A stretch of 17,701 bases of DNA, from the IMG/VR virus record IMGVR_UViG_3300043540_000327, one strand, 5' to 3'. The notes under the pieces were generated by a model. That model worked only from the letters and a program-made list of their open reading frames with translations. It searched no databases and was not told the DNA's origin. Shown here piece by piece: positions 3,124-12,462 of this stretch. The position numbers and the translations under genes are program-made. Positions within the stretch are counted from its first letter, which is position 1. Every line of letters starts with the position of its first letter. Source of the DNA: a virus.

Positions 3124-3361
3124 CGTCCCGCCAGGCGAGGAAATGATCCCGATGGGCTGCGGCCCCCAAGACTGGCGGGTCGGCCGTGGCTACTTCGAGA
3201 TGTTCGAGCGATACAAGCAGCAGAATCCGGGCTTCCAGGAAAGCGTTGACCGGGTGCGGAAGAACCTGTTCAAGTGGCGGACCCCGCCGAAGCCTGAAGA
3301 GCCGAAGCCGGACCAAAAGTACCGGAGCATTGACGACGAGTGGGACAATTTTGGAGCTTAG
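3083..3361 (+). CDS. Hypothetical protein ending in KYRSIDDEW
   Basis: ORF of 92 aa. The C-terminus reads ...KPEEPKPDQKYRSIDDEWDNFGA, with the motif at 3320-3343. The first 100 aa of the 3186..4025 track ORF are an out-of-frame shadow of this gene. Confidence 0.55.
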   Translation: MTDEEWEALKKKYNVPPGEEMIPMGCGPQDWRVGRGYFEMFERYKQQNPGFQESVDRVRKNLFKWRTPPKPEEPKPDQKYRSIDDEWDNFGA

Positions 3362-3377
3362 TGCAATATATACCGAT

Positions 3378-4025
3378 ATGGAGATTCACGAAGTCGTCAA
3401 ACTGTTCGTCCAAGAGCTACAAATCGAACCGATCTACGAGCAAGAAGGTCGGCATTTCCAACTCTGGTGGTCGCCGCCGATGGACGACGGCCGCAAGCGC
3501 CACGGTCAAATCTGGCGGGTCATCAGCCAACTCTACAAGGACCAGCGGGTACTCCAGATCGGCTACCCCTGGCAGGGCAACGAGTTTCCCTCGGCCAAGG
3601 TGCTGGATTATACCGGCGAGCATGACGATGCGGATTATAAACTGAATCCGCAGAACATGCCTTGTATCAAAGACGGCAGTTTTGATCTGGTGCTTTGCAA
3701 CAGCATCTTGGAGCAGATGCCAAAGTTCTGGCTCGTTGCCCAGGAGATGTGCCGGGTGCTGGATAAGAACGGCGTCTTATGGGTGACGGCGCCGGCCGTC
3801 TGGCCGCACCACCCTGACGGCGAAAGCACCGAATACGGCGGCGACTATTGGCGATTTACCCACCGTGGCCTGGCCGAGTTGTTCGAGGAGCATTGCGACA
3901 AATTGGCGACTTGGTATATTCCGGCACAGGCCCCTTACGACAACCCGCAGTCGGGCTGGGGAGTTGTCTATGTGGGGAGGAAAAGAGATGAACAAAGTAA
4001 GACCATCGGTTTACCTGGAAGATAA
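3378..4025 (+). CDS. Class I SAM-dependent methyltransferase (type 11-like)
   Basis: An ATG at 3378 follows the previous stop at 3359-3361. The segment SFDLVLCNSILEQMP..CRVLDKNGVLWVTAP matches the post-I/II motifs of small SAM methyltransferases (FDLVxxxxVLEH...LKPGGxLxxT). The N-terminal 64 aa of the track ORF look out-of-frame. Confidence 0.6.
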   Translation: MEIHEVVKLFVQELQIEPIYEQEGRHFQLWWSPPMDDGRKRHGQIWRVISQLYKDQRVLQIGYPWQGNEFPSAKVLDYTGEHDDADYKLNPQNMPCIKDGSFDLVLCNSILEQMPKFWLVAQEMCRVLDKNGVLWVTAPAVWPHHPDGESTEYGGDYWRFTHRGLAELFEEHCDKLATWYIPAQAPYDNPQSGWGVVYVGRKRDEQSKTIGLPGR

Positions 4026-4506: not shown

Positions 4507-4777
4507 TTATGACGAATACTTCCAATTATGCAGGACGGCGAGCGTGCCGGTAGGTAGCATGGAGACACAACAAGTAATCGACGTATTGAAGGAAAAGTAC
4601 CCACACGCCTTCCGCATGGTGAAAGACGAACCTCACCTGGAGGTCGCTGTCGCCCTGAGCGGCACGACGTTGCCGCTGATGAACGATTGGGCACGTCGGA
4701 TGGGCGAGGGTGCGACCTTCGACCTTTTCCACAAGAGTCTATCAGAAGTCCTGATGCAGCAGGAAGGAGCGGCTTGA
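4496..4777 (+). CDS. Hypothetical protein
   Basis: ORF of 93 aa; GGAGGGAG lies immediately upstream of the ATG at 4496. Its stop overlaps the next start (TGATG). Confidence 0.45.
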   Translation: MLVDYDEYFQLCRTASVPVGSMETQQVIDVLKEKYPHAFRMVKDEPHLEVAVALSGTTLPLMNDWARRMGEGATFDLFHKSLSEVLMQQEGAA

Positions 4778-5310
4778 TGTCGAAGCTGATCGACTTTTAC
4801 CTGGAAGAAGGAACCGATACCGAGGGCAGAACCTTCACGGAGATTATGGCCTGGTCGGACGAGAAGTGGGAGTTCGGCCACGATTACATCCAGTGGATGT
4901 TCCCGCTCCAGGAAGAGAGCAACTTCAACCCGGACGCCCCGTTGTTGACGGAAGAGGACATCAGGCTCTTTCATGCCAACCCGGACCTGCGAAACAACAT
5001 GGTCCTGGCCTTTCACCGCTTCGTGAAGTTTCTGGGTCTGAAGTGGCTGATCGACCCGATGATCCAGGACGCTACGGTCATCAAGGCCGGCAACTTTCAG
5101 GAACGGCGGTGGATGATTTGGGACAACCCGAACCACAACTGGTTCCGCATCAGTCGTGTTCTCAAGTCCTTGAAGCTTCTGGGTTTGAAAGAATACGCCG
5201 ACGATCTATTTGCCTGCTTGAAGCGATTGCACGAGGACGAGGGCCTGGTGACTGGCAACTCGTTTCGCTATTGGCAAGAAGCGGTTGCACTTCCGACGAA
5301 ATCAGAGTAG
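4777..5310 (+). CDS. OGFr_N-like (opioid growth factor receptor conserved region family) protein
   Basis: An ATG at 4777 follows GGAAGGAGCGG. The N-terminal segment IDFYLEEGTDTEGRTFTEIMAWSDEKWEFGHDYIQWMFPL matches the characteristic start of bacterial OGFr_N-family proteins (..FY.G...D..GR.L.EI..W.D..LE..HDYIQWLFPL). Confidence 0.5.
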   Translation: MSKLIDFYLEEGTDTEGRTFTEIMAWSDEKWEFGHDYIQWMFPLQEESNFNPDAPLLTEEDIRLFHANPDLRNNMVLAFHRFVKFLGLKWLIDPMIQDATVIKAGNFQERRWMIWDNPNHNWFRISRVLKSLKLLGLKEYADDLFACLKRLHEDEGLVTGNSFRYWQEAVALPTKSE

Positions 5311-5350: not shown

Positions 5351-5686
5351 ATGAAGGAGCTTGTGAACCAGATCGCCCAGAAGTCCGAGGTTGACGGGGC
5401 GTTCTTTCGTGCCCACTTCCTGGGTTGCGTGGAACTGACGAAGCTAGGCGACGAGTACCGAAGCGTCATGAAGGCGTTAATCGAGTGCCCCGTGTGCCAG
5501 CGACTCTGCCCAGGCGTCAATGAACTGCACGGTCATCTGGTCATGCACTGGCCCATTGCTCACGTTCGGGATTACCTGGACTGGTTGGAGAACCAGCGTG
5601 AGGACGTGCGGCGGGAGATGAAACAGCTTGCGGATTCATTGCAAGAAAGCATGGGCCTGTTGATAAATAAGAACACGCCGGCATGA
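5351..5686 (+). CDS. Hypothetical protein with a single C2H2-type zinc finger
   Basis: ORF of 111 aa. CPVCQRLCPGVNELHGHLVMH has the C-x2-C-x12-H-x3-H spacing, with a Leu three residues before the first His. The stop (5684-5686) lies inside the 5' end of tRNA-Thr. Confidence 0.5.
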   Translation: MKELVNQIAQKSEVDGAFFRAHFLGCVELTKLGDEYRSVMKALIECPVCQRLCPGVNELHGHLVMHWPIAHVRDYLDWLENQREDVRREMKQLADSLQESMGLLINKNTPA

Positions 5687-5747
5687 TGTAATGGTAGCCT
5701 GACTGCCTTGTAAGCAGTATGTCCGGGTTCGATTCCTGGTGCCGGCT
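5677..5747 (+). tRNA. tRNA-Thr (anticodon UGU)
   Basis: Hand-folded cloverleaf. Acceptor stem gccggca/tgccggc is 7 perfect bp. The D-arm is atgt-aatggta-gcct with one mismatch. The anticodon stem actgc/gcagt has loop cttgtaa, giving anticodon TGT with U33 and A37. The variable loop is 4 nt. The T-arm is ccggg-ttcgatt-cctgg. Discriminator is T and no CCA is encoded. Confidence 0.7.
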
Positions 5748-5748
5748 C

Positions 5749-6102
5749 TTAACTAGCACTAACAATAGGACCACCAGCGGGTGGCGTTGCGGAAACGGGT
5801 GGTTCGATTTTAACCATCCACCACTTGACGGGCGGCGTAAGTTCGTCCCACGGTCGGGCGTAGTTCAGTTGAATCACACCAGCCCCGGTGATGAGGAAAA
5901 CGAAGTGGATACTGACGGGGGCGCCGGGCTTGGCGGGGTCTTCTCCCTCATGGCGAATGTACTGAAGCAATCCGGCGGTCGTATCTACAGCCTGCCAGAT
6001 AAAACCGCTGCCGGCTGCCCAGGGCAGGGTGACGGTTAAGCGATCTCCAGAAACGGCATGGACGGTTTGGCCGTTATTCTCATTGGTGACTTTAATATCC
6101 AT
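5749..6102 (-). CDS. Chagasin-family (MEROPS I42) cysteine-peptidase inhibitor homologue
   Basis: The 117-aa - strand protein begins MDIKVTNENNGQTVHAVSGDRLTVTLPWAAGSGFIWQ. Compare T. cruzi chagasin MSHKVTKAHNGATLTVAVGELVEIQLPSNPTTGFAW. PGAPVSIHFVF aligns with LGAGGTEHFHV, and GAGVIQLNYARPWDE aligns with AGTHAVNLTYMRPW (the RPW loop L6). It has no signal peptide, like chagasin itself. The gene fills the gap between the two tRNA genes exactly. Confidence 0.7.
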   Translation of the reverse strand: MDIKVTNENNGQTVHAVSGDRLTVTLPWAAGSGFIWQAVDTTAGLLQYIRHEGEDPAKPGAPVSIHFVFLITGAGVIQLNYARPWDELTPPVKWWMVKIEPPVSATPPAGGPIVSAS

Positions 6103-6131: not shown

Positions 6132-6204
6132 GCGGGTGTAGCTCAGTGGCTAGAGCGCCACGTTGCCAACGTGGATGTCGTGGGTTCAAATCCCATCACC
6201 CGCT
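6132..6204 (+). tRNA. tRNA-Gly (anticodon GCC)
   Basis: Canonical cloverleaf. Acceptor gcgggtg/cacccgc. D-arm gctc-agtggcta-gagc. Anticodon stem ccacg/cgtgg with loop ttgccaa, giving GCC. T-arm gtggg-ttcaaat-cccat. Discriminator is T and no CCA is encoded. Confidence 0.85.
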
Positions 6205-6258
6205 CTTGAGGATTTACGGTGCCCCGGAACTTGTTCGAGGACCATAACGACTTCAGGG

Positions 6259-6450
6259 ATGTTATCACTGGCCCAACTTCGGGATGCCCTTCAGAACGGT
6301 CGTGTGTTCAAGCGAGGCACCCCGATCAAGGTGACGATACCACAGATGGCGATGCCGAATATCGTTTTCGCTGATGAGGTCCACGAAACGGTGGTGCCGA
6401 TCAAACCCAAGAAGAAATATCGCTCGATTGACGATCCCTGGGAGGCGTGA
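6259..6450 (+). CDS. Hypothetical small protein ending in KKYRSIDDPWEA
   Basis: This ATG is the first in-frame start downstream of the tRNA. The 63-aa product ends ...VVPIKPKKKYRSIDDPWEA, with the motif at 6418-6441. Its stop overlaps the next start (TGATG). The upstream part of the 6163 track ORF overlaps tRNA-Gly and is rejected. Confidence 0.5.
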   Translation: MLSLAQLRDALQNGRVFKRGTPIKVTIPQMAMPNIVFADEVHETVVPIKPKKKYRSIDDPWEA

Positions 6451-6719
6451 TGAAGTTCTGGGGCCAGCTACAGCCGACGACTCGGTATATGCTCATTAAC
6501 CTGGCCACGGCAATGGTCACGCTGACCTGCAACGACTACTGGCACGAGTATGCCTGGTTATGGTTCTCCCTCCAAATGTGTGTGACGTTGCCCACGGCGA
6601 TCTATTACACCTGGGTGACGAACAAGGAGCAACATGAGTCTTCTAACGACTTTCGAGGAACTGCCCCTGGGGACCAAGTTCGTCCTCTTGAACCAGGACA
6701 GTGGGACTATCAAATATGA
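6450..6719 (+). CDS. Small hydrophobic (about 2 TM) membrane protein
   Basis: A GGGAGG RBS lies 4 nt upstream of the ATG at 6450. MLINLATAMVTLTC..AWLWFSLQMCVTLPTAIYYTWV form two hydrophobic helices. The 3' tail overlaps the next gene and may not all be coding. Confidence 0.45.
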   Translation: MKFWGQLQPTTRYMLINLATAMVTLTCNDYWHEYAWLWFSLQMCVTLPTAIYYTWVTNKEQHESSNDFRGTAPGDQVRPLEPGQWDYQI

Positions 6720-6942
6720 CCCCGTGAAGTCTCACGAGGACATCTTCACGAAGGTCACGGACAACTACGCCGAGTTCCGAAAAAACCCGAGGACCACGGA
6801 GAAGGGCCAGTTCCAACCTGTCACCGGCGAACTGGAGGTCATGGCGGTCGAAACCGATGTCTGTTGCGTGTGCAATAAAGAACACATCATGATGTACCTC
6901 GAATACGAACCATCACCTTGTTGCAAGTGGTGCAAGAAGTAA
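6634..6942 (+). CDS. Hypothetical Cys-rich protein
   Basis: An AAGGAG RBS lies 6 nt upstream of the ATG at 6634. The C-terminus carries a Cys cluster (CCVCNKEH...PCCKWCKK). A terminator hairpin follows. Confidence 0.6.
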   Translation: MSLLTTFEELPLGTKFVLLNQDSGTIKYDPVKSHEDIFTKVTDNYAEFRKNPRTTEKGQFQPVTGELEVMAVETDVCCVCNKEHIMMYLEYEPSPCCKWCKK

Positions 6943-6946
6943 ACGA

Positions 6947-6978
6947 AAACGGCCAGGAAAATCCTGGCCGTTTGCTTT
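6947..6978. terminator. Bidirectional rho-independent terminator between convergent genes
   Basis: aaacggccagg-aaaat-cctggccgttt forms an 11-bp perfect stem followed by GCTTT. On the other strand it is preceded by A/T-rich text. It lies 4 nt after the + gene stop (6940-6942) and immediately after the - gene stop (6977-6979). Confidence 0.7.
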
Positions 6979-7336
6979 AGCGGTATGGCCTGCCGTGCCA
7001 GTGCCATGACCCTCCGTACCACCGCCAGCCGTAATAAGGCCGGTAGTAGCGATAGTAGTACCCGTAATTCGGGTAGGTATAAGGCTGGTAGTAGAAGGGC
7101 AAGGTGATGATGGGTGCCGGCGGCGGCTCTAGCTCAACGGGTGGCGGCACCACGGGCAGTGGAACCCACCGCCAACCGTAATTGGGATAGTACCTCCACC
7201 TGCCCTGTACTTGAGCGAGATGTGCAGGGCGGTCGGCGTTTTGCCTTTCCTGGTGGACGTTGGGCTTCGGCGGGTCTTTGACGGGTTCGTAGTCGGTCGG
7301 CAAAACGAATAGGGCGACGGCTAAGAGATTGTACAT
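6977..7336 (-). CDS. Secreted or signal-anchored protein with a C-terminal region extremely rich in Tyr/Trp/Pro/Gly/Arg
   Basis: A strong - strand RBS (AAAGGAGGTATT-ATG) precedes it. The N-terminus MYNLLAVALFVLP is hydrophobic. A PPPVELEPPPAP linker follows. The C-terminus reads YYQPYTYPNYGYYYRYYRPYYGWRWYGGSWHWHGRPYR. No + strand ORF competes for this span. Confidence 0.6.
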   Translation of the reverse strand: MYNLLAVALFVLPTDYEPVKDPPKPNVHQERQNADRPAHLAQVQGRWRYYPNYGWRWVPLPVVPPPVELEPPPAPIITLPFYYQPYTYPNYGYYYRYYRPYYGWRWYGGSWHWHGRPYR

Positions 7337-7370
7337 AATACCTCCTTTATTGAATTATAACGGAGTGGAT

Positions 7371-8030
7371 ATGCAGATCAAAACCATCGAAGTGAAGTGC
7401 CGCTTCGGAATGGTCCCCGTGAGCGTCGGTGACAAATTCAATACCGGCGACGGCGAATGGGAGGTTCGGGAAATCGACACCCGCAACACCATCAACGGGT
7501 ATTGGGAGATTGATTGCCCTATTCTGATCTGCCACAATCCGGCTCGACCCGATTACGGTGCCCACGCCATCTATGCGGCACTCAAACGACCCGGACTGGT
7601 TTGCCACCTGCTGGACGAGGCGAACCTGAAGAGCATTACCTTCGGCAACCTGGGTGCTTTCTCGGCCGAGTGGGTCGGGATGCTGAAGAATCGGGAGGCA
7701 ACCTGGGAAAATCGGTTTGCGGCGCCGGTGGAAGCTGAGGGCCTGTTGGTTTTCCTGGATACGCACATTGACGACCAACTCCGGGACGAGGGCAATGCCC
7801 GTGAGATCGTGCGGCTTGTGCAAAATACACGCAAGAATGCTAAATTAGAGATGCGTGACGAAGTGGAATTGGTCCTGGAAGCCAAGACCGATGAGTTTCG
7901 GCTGGCAATAGAGGCGATGAAAGAGTATATTTGTTATGAGACTTCGGCAACCCTGGTGGCGAGCCTGGAAGGAGAAGGAGTAGTCGCCAGCGATGAGAAG
8001 TCCGTCAGCATTAAGGTCAAGAAGAAATGA
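7371..8030 (+). CDS. Hypothetical protein with an isoleucyl-tRNA-synthetase C-terminal-like segment
   Basis: The ATG at 7371 has a GGAGTGG RBS. EGLLVFLDTHIDDQLRDEGNAREIVRLVQNTRKNAKLEMRDEVELVLEA...AMKEYICYETSATLVA matches the IleRS pre-zinc-finger block as remembered (ALDTTLTPEL..EGLARELVRRVQQLRKDAGL.VSDRI.L....EH.AYIGAETLA). The true start is 35 nt from the divergent - strand gene. Confidence 0.5.
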   Translation: MQIKTIEVKCRFGMVPVSVGDKFNTGDGEWEVREIDTRNTINGYWEIDCPILICHNPARPDYGAHAIYAALKRPGLVCHLLDEANLKSITFGNLGAFSAEWVGMLKNREATWENRFAAPVEAEGLLVFLDTHIDDQLRDEGNAREIVRLVQNTRKNAKLEMRDEVELVLEAKTDEFRLAIEAMKEYICYETSATLVASLEGEGVVASDEKSVSIKVKKK

Positions 8031-8538: not shown

Positions 8539-8841
8539 ATGATTCCAGCGAAGAAACTGACTGAGTTGAAGGCTGCCATCGCCACGGTCCTGACGCATGA
8601 CATTGGTGTCGGCCTCCCGGTCGATGACCTGTGCGTGTATCGTGACCCAGGCGGTCTGTTCGCCGTGGATTTCACCCCGGTCGGCAGCCTGGAGGCCATC
8701 GACGGCCTCAGCGAAGAACAGAACCGTCAGATCACTGAAGACGGAGAAATCAACGACTACTTCGAGACGGCCGAGGAAGCCGCCGAGGAGTACCTGAAGC
8801 TCCGCTTCGCCCTGAAAAAAGAAGGCGTTCTCATTCGATGA
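8539..8841 (+). CDS. Hypothetical acidic protein
   Basis: ORF of 100 aa with an acidic C-terminal half (EEQNRQITEDGEINDYFETAEEAAEEY). Its stop overlaps the next start (ATGA). Confidence 0.5.
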   Translation: MIPAKKLTELKAAIATVLTHDIGVGLPVDDLCVYRDPGGLFAVDFTPVGSLEAIDGLSEEQNRQITEDGEINDYFETAEEAAEEYLKLRFALKKEGVLIR

Positions 8842-9323
8842 AGATCGACATTTTAAGTCACCGCAACCTAGTCGAGCATCTTGCTGCCAATAGCAAGATG
8901 CTCGACGCTATCATGATCGTCAACCACAATCCACGCTGGGCCAACGACGAACAAGCCGAGCGGATTCGCCTCGCCAAAGAACACGCCCGTGATTTACTCG
9001 TGCTGACGTTTGACGACACGACTTTCCACCGGGACGGCTACCAGGCCCCCGAGCCTCGCCACGTCCGGGAGGCCCTGGAGTGGGCCAAGGACCGGGAGGA
9101 GTTTGTCGTCTCCTGCACGGCCGGCAAGTCACGGAGTTCCAGCATCGCCTATGTTCTTGCATCCAAGAAGATTGGGCCGGAAGAAGCGATTCGGATACTC
9201 GATCCGAACCGGCATATCCCCAACGAATGGGTGGTGAAGCATGGCTCTGAACTTCTCGATAACCTCCAGGTGTGGGACTTGTTCCTGGAATACCAGGCCA
9301 CAGCCCCCGCCTATAAATGGTGA
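8838..9323 (+). CDS. Cys-X5-Arg phosphatase (dual-specificity/tyrosine phosphatase fold)
   Basis: FVVSCTAGKSRSSSIAYVL matches the (V/I)HCxAGxSRSxTxxxAY(L/I) P-loop signature, and Asp-containing loops lie upstream. The protein is 161 aa. Confidence 0.6.
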   Translation: MKIDILSHRNLVEHLAANSKMLDAIMIVNHNPRWANDEQAERIRLAKEHARDLLVLTFDDTTFHRDGYQAPEPRHVREALEWAKDREEFVVSCTAGKSRSSSIAYVLASKKIGPEEAIRILDPNRHIPNEWVVKHGSELLDNLQVWDLFLEYQATAPAYKW

Positions 9324-9813: not shown

Positions 9814-10253
9814 ATATCAAGAAAGCTACCTACAGTGGACAGAACGGCCCCTTTGAAGTAGAATACGATGCCGATGCCCCGTGCCAATGCTGCGGGCTGC
9901 CGGTTGAAGAAGCTTCAATGGGCGGCACCAACGTCTGTCCGGCTTGCGACTGCGGCGTGCGACGGGACGGCGAGAAGTACAGCGTGAAGGAGATGCTGCT
10001 TCTGGGCAAGAAGGAGAAGACGCCGGAGGACTGGAAGGAAATCGAGATCGTTCGTCTGCCGTTCCAGGAGCGGATTTCCAAGATCATGGGCAGTGCCATC
10101 GTCGGCAAGGTAAGCGGCCCGATCCACGGCGCCATCGGCGCCCAGAACCTCGCCAATCAGTACGTCAAACGACAGCAAGAACTGCGGGAGAAGCATGGAG
10201 ACGAAGGACTGGACGCTGACGAAGGTGATCTCGGGGGCGCAGACCGGGGCTGA
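9810..10253 (+). CDS. Hypothetical Cys-rich protein
   Basis: CQCCG...CPACDCG zinc-ribbon-like cluster. ATGA overlap at the start. Confidence 0.5.
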   Translation: MNIKKATYSGQNGPFEVEYDADAPCQCCGLPVEEASMGGTNVCPACDCGVRRDGEKYSVKEMLLLGKKEKTPEDWKEIEIVRLPFQERISKIMGSAIVGKVSGPIHGAIGAQNLANQYVKRQQELREKHGDEGLDADEGDLGGADRG

Positions 10254-10728
10254 CCAGGCTGCGCTGCGTGCCGCCAAGAAGCTGGGCATCGCCACCGGCG
10301 GCTGGGTGCCCAAGGGCTGTCGCACCGAGGACGGTCCTCGCCCGGACCTGATTGACGAGTTCGGCCTGACCGAAACCGAAACCGACGACTACGTTGAACG
10401 GACCCATCTGAATATCGAGCATTCGGACGGTACGATCCGGTTCGCCGCCGATTTCAACTCGATTGGCGAGCGATGCACGCTGCGGGGCATTCGCAAATAT
10501 AAGAAGCCCTATTTCGATTTCGATATCAGCAAGCATTATCGCTTTGCCGACCTCCTCCGGTGGGTCTGGGATAACAACATCCACGTCCTGAACGTCGCCG
10601 GCAACCGGGAGAGTAAGCACCCCGGCATCGGCAAAACGGTGGAAGAATTCCTCATCCCTTTTTTCACGCAGCTTATTCCCCTGGAACGGGCGGAAGCGTT
10701 GCTGCGCAAAGTCCTGGAGAATGACTGA
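10195..10728 (+). CDS. SLOG-superfamily 'putative molybdenum-cofactor carrier' (PF12694-like) protein
   Basis: VISGAQTGADQAALRAAKKLGIATGGWVPKGCRTEDGPRP...ETETDDYVERTHLNIEHSDGTIRF matches the remembered family consensus (GGQTGvDraALdaA..gi.hGGWCPkGR.AEDG.i...ETpsadYaeRTewNvrDSDgTL). GGGAGAAG RBS. The stop overlaps the SerRS-like start. Confidence 0.6.
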   Translation: METKDWTLTKVISGAQTGADQAALRAAKKLGIATGGWVPKGCRTEDGPRPDLIDEFGLTETETDDYVERTHLNIEHSDGTIRFAADFNSIGERCTLRGIRKYKKPYFDFDISKHYRFADLLRWVWDNNIHVLNVAGNRESKHPGIGKTVEEFLIPFFTQLIPLERAEALLRKVLEND

Positions 10729-11516
10729 TGATCGACTTTGAGCGTGGTGCGAAGACGACCGGCTCCAAGTTCTACTTCCTGACCGGCCAGAAGGCCGTCA
10801 TGGAGTGGAACCTTATCAACTTCATGATCTCCCACCATCGGCACAACGGCTACGAGTTCGTGATCTCACCCTACCTCATTAACAAGCAGGTGGGTGAGTG
10901 GGCCGGCATCAACAAGCAGGTGGGTGAGTGGGCCGGCATCCTGCCTCGCTTTGAGGGCGACTATTACCAGACCCAGGAAGGACTCATGCTCATTCCCACG
11001 GCCGAGACGCCGCTCGTGGGAATGCACGCCGACGAAATCTTCCAGGAGGAAGAACTGCCGAAGCGTTATGTCGCCTTCTCGCCGTGCTTCCGCAAGGAGG
11101 CCGGTGCTTATGGTGCCAAGGACAAGGGCTATAAGCGGGTCCACCAGTTCCACAAGATCGAGTTGTTCGTGATTTGCGAACCCACGGCGAGCGAGTTTCA
11201 GCACAACCAGATGGTTGGCGATGTGGTCAGCCTGATGAAGAAGCTCAAGGTCGAATATCGCCTGCGGGAATTGCCGCCCGAGGAGCGTAGCCCGGTATCG
11301 GCCAGGACCATCGACGTGGAGGTCAAGGTCGGGGACGAGTGGCTGGAAGTGTCATCCATTTCCAACACGCTTGATACCCAGAGCAAGCCGGCACAGATTC
11401 GCTTCAAGCCGAAGTGCGGCGGCAAGAACATCAAGTGCCATTTGCTCAACGGCTCCGGCGTAGCCTTGCCCCGGCTGATGTTGGCCCTGGCCGACCGTAT
11501 GGCAGAGTGGAAATGA
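10728..11516 (+). CDS. Seryl-tRNA-synthetase catalytic-core homologue lacking the N-terminal tRNA-binding arm (SerRS-like, amino-acid:carrier-protein-ligase-like architecture)
   Basis: It aligns by eye with E. coli SerRS from about residue 105 to the end of motif 3. [20 protein letters not shown] matches [29 protein letters not shown] is motif 1. [21 protein letters not shown] is motif 2 (fRsE). [15 protein letters not shown] is motif 3. There is no coiled-coil arm and no C-terminal tail. It contains an in-frame 10-aa duplication. Confidence 0.8.
   Translation: [262 protein letters not shown]
10881..10940 (+). repeat. Perfect 2 x 30-bp tandem duplication inside the SerRS-like gene
   Basis: aacaagcaggtgggtgagtgggccggcatc occurs twice without a mismatch and duplicates [10 protein letters not shown] in frame. 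Confidence 0.9.
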
Positions 11517-12396: not shown

Positions 12397-12462
12397 CTTT
12401 TGTGCTTTACAATTGGCACATTCACATTGGCGGAAGACCCACAACATAACTCTGAGGGATTT

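Follow-up and report, generated by a model that had tools for sequence, protein, structure and literature searches.

A real-looking orphan phage gene for an aromatic, proline-rich protein with two predicted tryptophan-zipper-like hairpins

Within a block of plus-strand genes of the IMG/VR virus record IMGVR_UViG_3300043540_000327, a short open reading frame (ORF) runs in the opposite direction, at positions 6977-7336 of the 17,701-nucleotide stretch analyzed here (hereafter, the window), and its conceptual product, 119 amino acids (aa) long, is so rich in tyrosine, tryptophan and proline that two questions arise at once: is this ORF a gene and, if so, what could such a protein do in an infected cell? 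A preliminary description of the locus had presented the product as an extremely aromatic and basic secreted protein, encoded head to head with a plus-strand gene and, possibly, membrane-active. Our analysis leads to a more differentiated picture, in which the ORF looks like a real gene, an ORFan, whose product is remarkable yet unconserved, and in which secretion is not supported. Among the functions that can be considered for the product, we favor that of an accessory phage protein that binds membrane interfaces peripherally, with a probability of about 0.4.

The minus-strand gene and its expression signals

The ORF extends over 119 codons from the ATG at 7336 to the TAA stop at 6979-6977 on the minus strand and encodes a protein of 14.6 kDa with a pI of 9.4, MYNLLAVALFVLPTDYEPVKDPPKPNVHQERQNADRPAHLAQVQGRWRYYPNYGWRWVPLPVVPPPVELEPPPAPIITLPFYYQPYTYPNYGYYYRYYRPYYGWRWYGGSWHWHGRPYR, the C-terminal end of which, YYYRYYRPYYGWRWYGGSWHWHGRPYR, is the same as originally quoted. 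The composition is as extreme as had been claimed: 21 Pro, 19 Tyr, 10 Arg, 7 Trp and 7 Gly, with a single Met and no Cys, which corresponds to 18% Pro, 16% Tyr, 8% Arg and 6% Trp. Aromatic residues account for 23.5% of the whole product and for 33% of residues 45-119; in its best 40-aa segment, Tyr and Trp together reach 45%, compared with 23% for the runner-up among all ORFs of at least 50 aa in any frame of the whole window. The 70-residue tail, for which a content of Tyr, Trp, Pro, Gly and Arg above 60% had been given, contains 70% of these residues. The adjective "basic" applies as well, to a moderate rather than an extreme degree (12 Lys and Arg vs 7 Asp and Glu, plus 4 His, for a net charge of about +5), and what was initially described as a poly-Pro linker is indeed Pro-rich but consists of two stretches, with PPP as the longest run.

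The 55% GC window contains 71 listed ORFs of at least 80 aa, so that length alone is weak evidence for a gene; two dozen ORFs were treated as genes. When the 427 nt that separate the flanking plus-strand genes were shuffled, an ATG-initiated ORF of at least 119 aa appeared in 1.8% of the cases. The minus frame of 6977-7336 has the highest codon score among the six frames; the three plus frames all score poorly, on which ground a plus-strand gene disrupted by a frameshift was rejected, and the plus-strand ORFs that cover the region do not exceed 55 aa. With an overall codon score of 0.03, the minus-strand ORF lies at the bottom of the range for the genes of the window. Its GC content at third codon positions is ordinary. 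The GC contents at codon positions 1, 2 and 3 are 0.59, 0.46 and 0.73 (chi-square p = 1.3e-4), and the non-repetitive codons 1-45, with 0.71, 0.33 and 0.69, resemble the other genes of the window, which indicates that the periodicity is not merely a product of the Tyr and Pro repeats. The JGI gene caller independently called the same 119-aa ORF, and a Rfam search detected no RNA family in the region, its only matches being the three tRNAs of the window.

Signals of expression are apparent at both ends of the ORF. The Shine-Dalgarno (SD) site AAAGGAGGT (7340-7348, minus strand) is located 3 nt 5' of the ATG, and its duplex with the anti-SD sequence has an energy of -12.9 kcal/mol, the strongest among the 24 genes and matched by only 4 of 11,788 21-mers sampled from the window (0.03%), in full agreement with the strong ribosome-binding site (RBS) noted before. 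Upstream, a sigma-70-like promoter, TTGATC-16-TATAAT (7381-7354, minus strand), matches the consensus at 10 of 12 positions. Its perfect -10 element, TATAAT, occupies 7359-7354 in the spacer between the two divergent starts, which, with ATG codons at 7336 and 7371 flanking 7337-7370, is 34 nt long, exactly as reported; the -35 element, TTGATC, falls at 7381-7376, within codons 2-4 of the plus-strand gene. The contention that both promoters must lie inside coding sequence is thus partly right: of the predicted promoter of the minus-strand gene, only the -35 element does. The window contains five sites with at least 10 of 12 matches, where chance alone would provide about 0.9, and the probability that such a site falls directly upstream of any particular start is about 1e-3. 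The two sites with 11 of 12 matches are found immediately upstream of a gp32-like gene and of a tRNA gene, from which it appears that promoters of the sigma-70-like type are used on this contig. Transcription of the minus-strand gene would then start near 7347, leaving a leader of about 11 nt.

Beyond the stop codon, a terminator-like hairpin with a 12-bp stem (6947-6973, both strands) is positioned 3 nt past the stop of the minus-strand ORF and 4 nt past the plus-strand stop at 6942. The folding energy of the minus-strand RNA is -23.0 kcal/mol (z -4.8) and that of the plus-strand RNA -23.8 kcal/mol (z -3.9); the U-tract is imperfect in both orientations, and the hairpin, placed as it is between convergent genes, looks like a terminator on both strands. 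Another strong, terminator-like hairpin with a 12-bp stem (9 GC pairs), at 15963-15990 on the plus strand, ends 9 nt before the plus-strand start at 16000, so close to that gene that it bears on whether the hairpin at 6947-6973 truly halts plus-strand transcription; the intergenic hairpins of the contig may be partial terminators or RNA-stabilising elements. There is also an SD-like sequence inside the ORF, GGAGGTACTAT at 7187-7197 in codons R46-W47-R48-Y49, which near-duplicates the true SD and start, GGAGGTATTAT, at 7335-7345, and is followed by no in-frame start.

Taken together, the strong SD site, the promoter-like site, the three-base periodicity and the hairpin after the stop agree with the earlier opinion that the gene is real, in the sense that it looks real, and we consider it highly probable that the minus-strand ORF is a real, expressed gene.

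No relative of the 119-aa protein was found. Neither in 5.8 billion clustered proteins, searched with a word index, nor in 1.84 billion representatives, scanned in full with HMMER, was there any match other than the query itself. Scans of viral, metagenome and genome contigs with back-translated patterns recovered no relative, and tblastn against the INPHARED phages at E <= 10 produced nothing, with the caveat that the low-complexity filter of BLAST may mask the tail; more generally, the compositional-bias filters of HMMER and BLAST render these searches blind to proteins that are alike in composition only. No family was assigned by Pfam and PHROGs (E limit 1) or by NCBIfam and PADLOC (E limit 0.1), and no related genome carrying the flanking genes was found. 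A PDB sequence search gave a marginal local match to the fibronectin module 1FNIII (E = 0.039), in which the first predicted hairpin of the phage protein (residues 45-59, see below) is paired with an RWR...GRW stretch that presumably is the C-C' hairpin of FN3; the remainder of the domain is missing, and membership in the FN3 family was rejected. A Foldseek comparison of the AlphaFold model with the PDB retrieved nothing below E = 6, as expected for a predicted template modelling score (pTM) of 0.24. Orphan status is the norm on this contig, the divergent neighbor being equally orphan, and is not a mark against the gene.

Modules of the product and a possible role at membrane interfaces

The protein is a succession of modules with sharply different affinities for the membrane interface, as calculated with interfacial scale values that are reportedly those of Wimley and White 1996. 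Residues 1-13, MYNLLAVALFVLP (7298-7336; all modules on the minus strand), are hydrophobic and uncharged (-3.2 kcal/mol, charge 0), and are followed by the Pro-rich, charged spacer 1, residues 13-25, PTDYEPVKDPPKP (7262-7300; +8.0 kcal/mol, charge -1), and by the polar residues 26-44 (7205-7261; +8.9 kcal/mol, charge 0). Then come the predicted beta-hairpin 1, residues 45-59, GRWRYYPNYGWRWVP (7160-7204; -4.5 kcal/mol, charge +3), and the Pro-rich spacer 2, residues 60-80, LPVVPPPVELEPPPAPIITLP (7097-7159; +6.3 kcal/mol, charge -2); counting P59, the final residue of hairpin 1, Pro occupies 10 of the 22 positions of segment 59-80. The C-terminal part consists of the Tyr-rich, low-complexity residues 81-102, FYYQPYTYPNYGYYYRYYRPYY (7031-7096; -8.3 kcal/mol, charge +2), 13 of 22 of which are Tyr, the predicted beta-hairpin 2, residues 103-114, GWRWYGGSWHWH (6995-7030; -7.0 kcal/mol, charge +1 plus 2 His), and the short tail GRPYR, residues 115-119 (6980-6994; +1.1 kcal/mol, charge +2). 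Interface-seeking cationic modules (-3 to -8 kcal/mol) thus alternate with spacers at +6 to +9 kcal/mol, and the best 19-residue interfacial energy of the protein, -10.0 kcal/mol, is the most negative among the 24 products of the window; the value for a putative small membrane protein is -7.35 kcal/mol.

In the AlphaFold models, the strands of hairpin 1 (45-50 and 54-59) have block-mean values of the predicted local distance difference test (pLDDT) of 83-92 in the full-length protein and 86-94 in a construct of residues 41-119, and those of hairpin 2 (103-107 and 110-114) have 65-69 and 68-78, respectively; spacer 2 is modeled with no secondary structure at a pLDDT of about 72, and the Tyr-rich module 81-102 has 46-54. 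Reading the register of hairpin 1 in this model places W47/Y49 and W55/W57 on one face and R46/R48/R56 on the other, and, by the same reading, both hairpins would present an aromatic face together with an Arg/His face. Within GWRWYGGSWHWH, W104, W106, W111 and W113 are arranged as WxW, four residues, WxW, which is the spacing of the tryptophan zipper (trpzip), so that hairpin 2, if folded as predicted, would contain the cross-strand pairs W106:W111 and W104:W113. The WxW-4-WxW pattern occurred in 4e-4 of the composition-preserving shuffles of the protein, and all seven Trp residues stand in i/i+2 register within the two predicted hairpins.

The same spacing as in residues 103-114 is seen in the trpzip example peptide SWTWENGKWTWK. 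The trpzip motif comprises four cross-strand Trp residues and allows hairpins as short as 12 residues (PMC10593748). Like the original trpzip peptides (Cochran, Skelton and Starovasnik 2001, cited in PMC10593748), GWRWYGGSWHWH has four Trp in 12 residues at the trpzip spacing, and the predicted hairpin 1 resembles a looser version, with W47/Y49 against W55/W57. In contrast to these peptides, the phage motif is natural and genetically encoded, and is predicted two times within the same chain of 119 aa, where Pro-rich and Tyr-rich segments surround it; its turns are GG and PNY instead of engineered ones, and the phage hairpins are known from prediction.

Another point of reference is provided by the Trp/Arg-rich cationic antimicrobial peptides, which include indolicidin, tritrpticin and lactoferricin. 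Designed trpzip-like hairpins of the form (WK)n-pG-(KW)n, WK3 among them, are antimicrobial peptides as well, and the class acts mainly by membrane permeabilisation (PMC8254467). The predicted phage hairpins share with these peptides the alternation of aromatic and cationic residues, a Trp face combined with a charged face and, in our calculations, a strongly favorable interfacial partitioning energy, and it is this likeness on which the proposed membrane mechanism is based. The (WK)n-turn-(KW)n template is partly matched, with R46, R48 and R56 in hairpin 1 and R105, H112 and H114 in hairpin 2, where, however, Y107 and S110 depart from it. The differences are substantial too: the antimicrobial peptides are free molecules of 10-20 residues that act from outside the cell, whereas the phage modules are embedded in a 14.6-kDa protein made inside the infected cell, with no evident processing sites, and carry a lower charge per hairpin (+1 to +3, partly due to His).

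How the protein could reach a membrane hinges on its N-terminus, and here the label "secreted", an interpretation and not something seen in the sequence, is not sustained. Of the three classical features of a signal peptide, a single one is present, the h-region (typically about 7-15 residues) LLAVALFVL at residues 4-12, part of a hydrophobic run of 9-12 residues with a Kyte-Doolittle 9-residue maximum of 3.3. The n-region, residues 1-3 (M-Y-N), carries no charge, the first Lys or Arg being K20, and the hydrophobic core is followed by P-T-D-Y-E-P, in which no AXA-like motif can be read. Over 19 residues, the Kyte-Doolittle mean peaks at 1.0 and thus falls short of the 1.6 taken as the threshold for a membrane helix, which would span about 18-20 residues, and a product devoid of Cys has no lipobox. 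AlphaFold renders residues 1-26 as coil at low confidence, with no helix, and residues 1-13 have a pLDDT of 52-57. The hydrophobic N-terminus of the preliminary description is therefore genuine as a run of 9-12 residues, a length insufficient for a membrane helix. The succession of such an N-terminus and of Pro-rich segments with Glu and Lys, EPVKDPPKP and PVVPPPVELEPPPAP, is reminiscent of the Pro-rich periplasmic spacers of the TonB type and of phage spanins. The differences are that the phage hydrophobic segment is too short for an anchor and the TonB C-terminal domain is missing, and, with respect to the spanins, that there is no lipobox Cys, no C-terminal membrane segment and no long coiled-coil helix in the AlphaFold model. 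A spanin, a lipoprotein and a TonB-like anchor were accordingly rejected, given the lack of Cys, of a membrane helix and of a C-terminal domain.

The alternation of Trp and cationic residues on the hairpins, combined with the interfacial energies, favors peripheral binding to membrane interfaces. The membrane-active role suggested at the outset is thereby kept as the leading and most plausible reading, and the predicted trpzip-like hairpins give it a structural basis. In this scenario, the region 6947-7381 would be a compact transcription unit of ~0.4 kb, reversed within the plus-strand gene block and consisting of a host-type promoter, a very strong RBS, the 119-codon ORF and a hairpin terminator. 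The product would be a modular, mostly non-globular protein, in which a hydrophobic N-terminus and two extended Pro-rich spacers are combined with three cationic aromatic modules, namely, the two trpzip-like hairpins (45-59 and 103-114) and the Tyr-rich stretch (81-102). Trp and Tyr would insert their side chains among the lipid head groups, Arg and His would contact anionic lipids, as is the mode of action of Trp/Arg-rich and trpzip-like beta-hairpin peptides, and the host envelope would be perturbed or marked, conceivably, in the course of host takeover, exclusion of other phages or timing of lysis. What the analysis shows is the ORF with its expression signals, composition and orphan status, and the prediction of the hairpins; expression, hairpin folding, membrane binding, the face of the membrane involved and the biological consequences are inferred from these. 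A bolder version, to which we give a low probability, is that the protein is a natural, genetically encoded tandem tryptophan-zipper effector, in which two cationic hairpins and the Tyr-rich module, connected by polyproline spacers, bind and remodel the host membrane (or branched nucleic acids) during infection.

The organization of the unit invites comparison with the phage morons, which are independent transcriptional units of promoter, gene and terminator (PMC3594210). As in the morons, a single small gene with atypical codons and with its own predicted promoter and terminator is reversed among unrelated genes. Unlike the unit described here, which is known from one contig, morons are defined by comparison with relatives in which the insert is missing, and temperate phages are their best-known carriers, whereas nothing shows a temperate lifestyle in this case.

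Several observations weigh against a peripheral membrane protein or, at a more basic level, against an established gene. The N-terminus fits neither a signal peptide nor a membrane helix, so that the route to the membrane is unexplained unless the protein acts from the cytoplasmic face, and the composition would be just as suitable for binding nucleic acids or polysaccharides. In the family scans, the genes beside the 119-aa gene yielded none with a membrane, lysis or exclusion function. The lysis-accessory function that had been proposed has no contextual support, with no lysis genes found adjoining, and a lysis cassette was rejected, there being no endolysin or holin family nearby. The AlphaFold models are single-sequence models with a pTM of 0.24-0.26. 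The synonymous codon score of the ORF, -0.01, is at the low end of the range in the window (-0.06 to +0.50), with TAC as 15 of the 19 Tyr codons and AGG as 4 of the 10 Arg codons. The promoter call is a consensus match and nothing more, and a leader of about 11 nt with the SD site at its extreme 5' end is unusually short. With no homologue found, there is no sign of purifying selection. Finally, direct repeats of 15-17 nt with 87-94% identity encode YGWRW, YPNYG and YY(R/Q)PY; Tandem Repeats Finder reported no tandem repeats, these being short and dispersed. Such near-identical repeats indicate that the tail grew through short duplications, and suggest a young, still-expanding low-complexity region.

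Should the protein be made and its hairpins fold as predicted, it would be a rare natural tryptophan zipper, a motif known mainly from peptide design, and a cationic aromatic phage protein without relatives in sequence. That would mean that evolution, too, has reached the trpzip fold, and could point to a kind of phage effector not recognized before, to a mechanism by which huge phages target host membranes or nucleic-acid intermediates, and to a new scaffold for membrane-active peptides. For the present, the weight of the finding is modest because it rests on one sequence without conservation.

Competing explanations

A first alternative dispenses with both export and any membrane role, and regards the product as a cytoplasmic, disordered "sticker" rich in Arg, Tyr and Trp that binds nucleic acids (branched or single-stranded DNA, or RNA) by stacking, or drives or joins a condensate during infection. 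This is a possibility to which we assign a low probability, albeit one that accommodates an N-terminus unfit as a signal peptide or membrane helix, a chain predicted by AlphaFold to be mostly without regular structure, and the nucleic-acid and translation type of the surrounding genes (gp32-like protein, tRNAs and aminoacyl-tRNA synthetase domains). Richness in Arg and Tyr is, furthermore, a composition that we take to drive phase separation. A specific parallel comes from the hexapeptide WRWYCR, which was reportedly selected from a synthetic library. This synthetic peptide binds Holliday junctions and replication forks via base stacking of Trp and Tyr (PMC2532710), and the phage protein has in common with it the exact tetrapeptide WRWY, at residues 104-107, along with the richness in aromatic residues and Arg and the attendant base-stacking chemistry. 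However, the active form of WRWYCR is a disulfide-bridged, Cys-linked dimer (PMC2532710), whereas the 119-aa protein has no Cys, and identity over four residues is not homology. Proteins that bind nucleic acids usually carry more than the net charge of about +5 seen here, and neither the hydrophobic run at the N-terminus nor a Pro content of 18% is typical of them, and neither homology nor context ties the phage protein to recombination.

It is likewise possible, although doubtful, that the ORF is young or arose de novo and has no selected function, even if it is, perhaps, expressed; it would then owe its length to short duplications, and its promoter and RBS would be fortuitous or borrowed. 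The protein being a singleton in searches of 5.8 billion and 1.84 billion proteins, the synonymous codon use atypical of the window and the internal direct repeats all speak in this direction. Conversely, a well-placed promoter, the best SD site of the window and a terminator after the stop would be hard to acquire without selection for expression, the non-repetitive N-terminal half shows the codon-position GC pattern of a normal gene, the confinement of all seven Trp to alternating hairpin registers is rare given the composition, and the divergent neighbor is just as much an orphan. If the ORF were only a young one, it would still be a clean example of the growth of a low-complexity gene by short duplications behind strong expression signals.

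That the 394-nt stretch is a spacer or an antisense or regulatory RNA, in which the ORF is accidental, appears improbable: the excess of long ORFs in the window (71 vs the two dozen treated as genes), the codon score at the bottom of the range and the absence of a homologue would be compatible with this possibility, but an ORF of this length arises in 1.8% of shuffles only, the three-base periodicity extends to the non-repetitive part, the SD site is near-perfect and at the proper distance from the ATG, Rfam is empty in the region, and the JGI gene call is independent.

Least convincing is the idea, which goes back to the suggestion of a structural glue, that the protein is an exported adhesive or structural material for the virion or cell surface, or the precursor from which a cross-linked aromatic peptide of ribosomal origin is derived, and this seems very improbable: the low-complexity composition rich in Tyr, Gly, Arg, Asn, Trp and Pro, the YPNYG motif and the short degenerate repeats are reminiscent of mussel foot proteins 3 and 5 and of Tyr cross-linked wall proteins, and Trp/Tyr-rich cores do occur in cyclophane-type natural products, but there is no canonical export signal, no detected sequence relationship to the mussel proteins, which belong to a different organism and setting, and no virion, tail or secretion gene nearby, 119 aa is long for a precursor peptide, and no radical-SAM, P450, YcaO, ATP-grasp, tyrosinase or other peptide-modifying family was found among the larger ORFs scanned across the window, on which account a natural-product precursor was rejected.

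The divergent neighbor and the surrounding genes

The plus-strand partner of the head-to-head pair (7371-8030) encodes a 219-aa protein, with the start at 7371 and the length of 219 aa also given by the JGI call. Its C-terminal half matches DUF5915 (Pfam E = 2.6e-17), which we take to be the C-terminal domain of isoleucyl-tRNA synthetases, and weak NCBIfam matches to the C-terminus of MupA/MupB isoleucine-tRNA ligases are in agreement with this assignment. In the protein database search, the 219-aa protein matched itself only, and we found no evidence that links it functionally to the 119-aa protein. The promoter scan detected no sigma-70-like promoter for this gene within the minus-strand gene, which leaves either read-through that begins upstream, passes the hairpin and runs antisense to the minus-strand gene, or a promoter of a type outside the scan; the alternative of read-through, raised in the preliminary description, hence stays valid.

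A second single gene on the reverse strand (5749-6102) codes for a peptidase inhibitor of the chagasin family (Inhibitor_I42, E = 1.3e-8) and is inserted into a 383-nt gap between tRNA-Thr (5677-5748) and tRNA-Gly (6132-6205), so that small reverse inserts recur in the window. Immediately upstream of the convergent gene end at 6942, two plus-strand ORFs, 6447-6719 and 6634-6942, overlap by 86 nt in different frames, each with a good SD site. The first encodes 90 aa with two hydrophobic stretches, possibly, a small membrane protein, and the second has a cluster of Cys residues at the C-terminal end of its product (CCVCNKEH...CCKWCKK); no significant family match was obtained for either.

With its three tRNA genes, its gp32-like protein and its pieces of aminoacyl-tRNA synthetases, the contig as a whole resembles a portion of a huge phage genome; tRNA synthetases have been reported as one feature of such phages (PMC7162821). 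The gp32-like gene provides the sole phage match of the contig, at 35% identity to the 595-kb uncultured phage LR756511.1; in the 40 kb of that genome that were inspected, there is no shared gene order and no compositionally similar ORF, and megablast of the whole window against phages returned nothing. The isolated synthetase domains are distributed over three separate plus-strand genes, 7371-8030, 10728-11516 and 15262-15960, which, between them, encode DUF5915, a class II core (tRNA-synt_2b) and Anticodon_2 fused to DUF2934, and which look like stand-alone fragments rather than complete synthetases.

The plus-strand gene at 12400-15207 encodes a 935-aa protein with the shoulder domain of the Major Vault Protein (E = 3.6e-24) and a Vault_3 repeat (E = 8e-10). 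No relative of this vault-like protein was found on viral contigs; in the literature searched, vault-protein homologues in phages seem to be undescribed, and a comparable setting appears only in a paper on Borg elements. At the left end of the window, the plus-strand genes in 19-968 and 3186-4025 encode a fragment of a DegT/DnrJ-type aminotransferase, a PglD-like hexapeptide acetyltransferase and a methyltransferase, which suggest a phage-carried pathway of amino-sugar modification. Additional accessory genes that are unusual for phages are located at 4687-5310, 8838-9323 and 10195-10728, all on the plus strand, and their products include a domain similar to the N-terminal domain of the opioid growth factor receptor (E = 1.7e-21), a circularly permuted YpsA SLOG domain (E = 1e-39) and, with a weak match below the Pfam cutoff, a protein resembling dual-specificity phosphatases.

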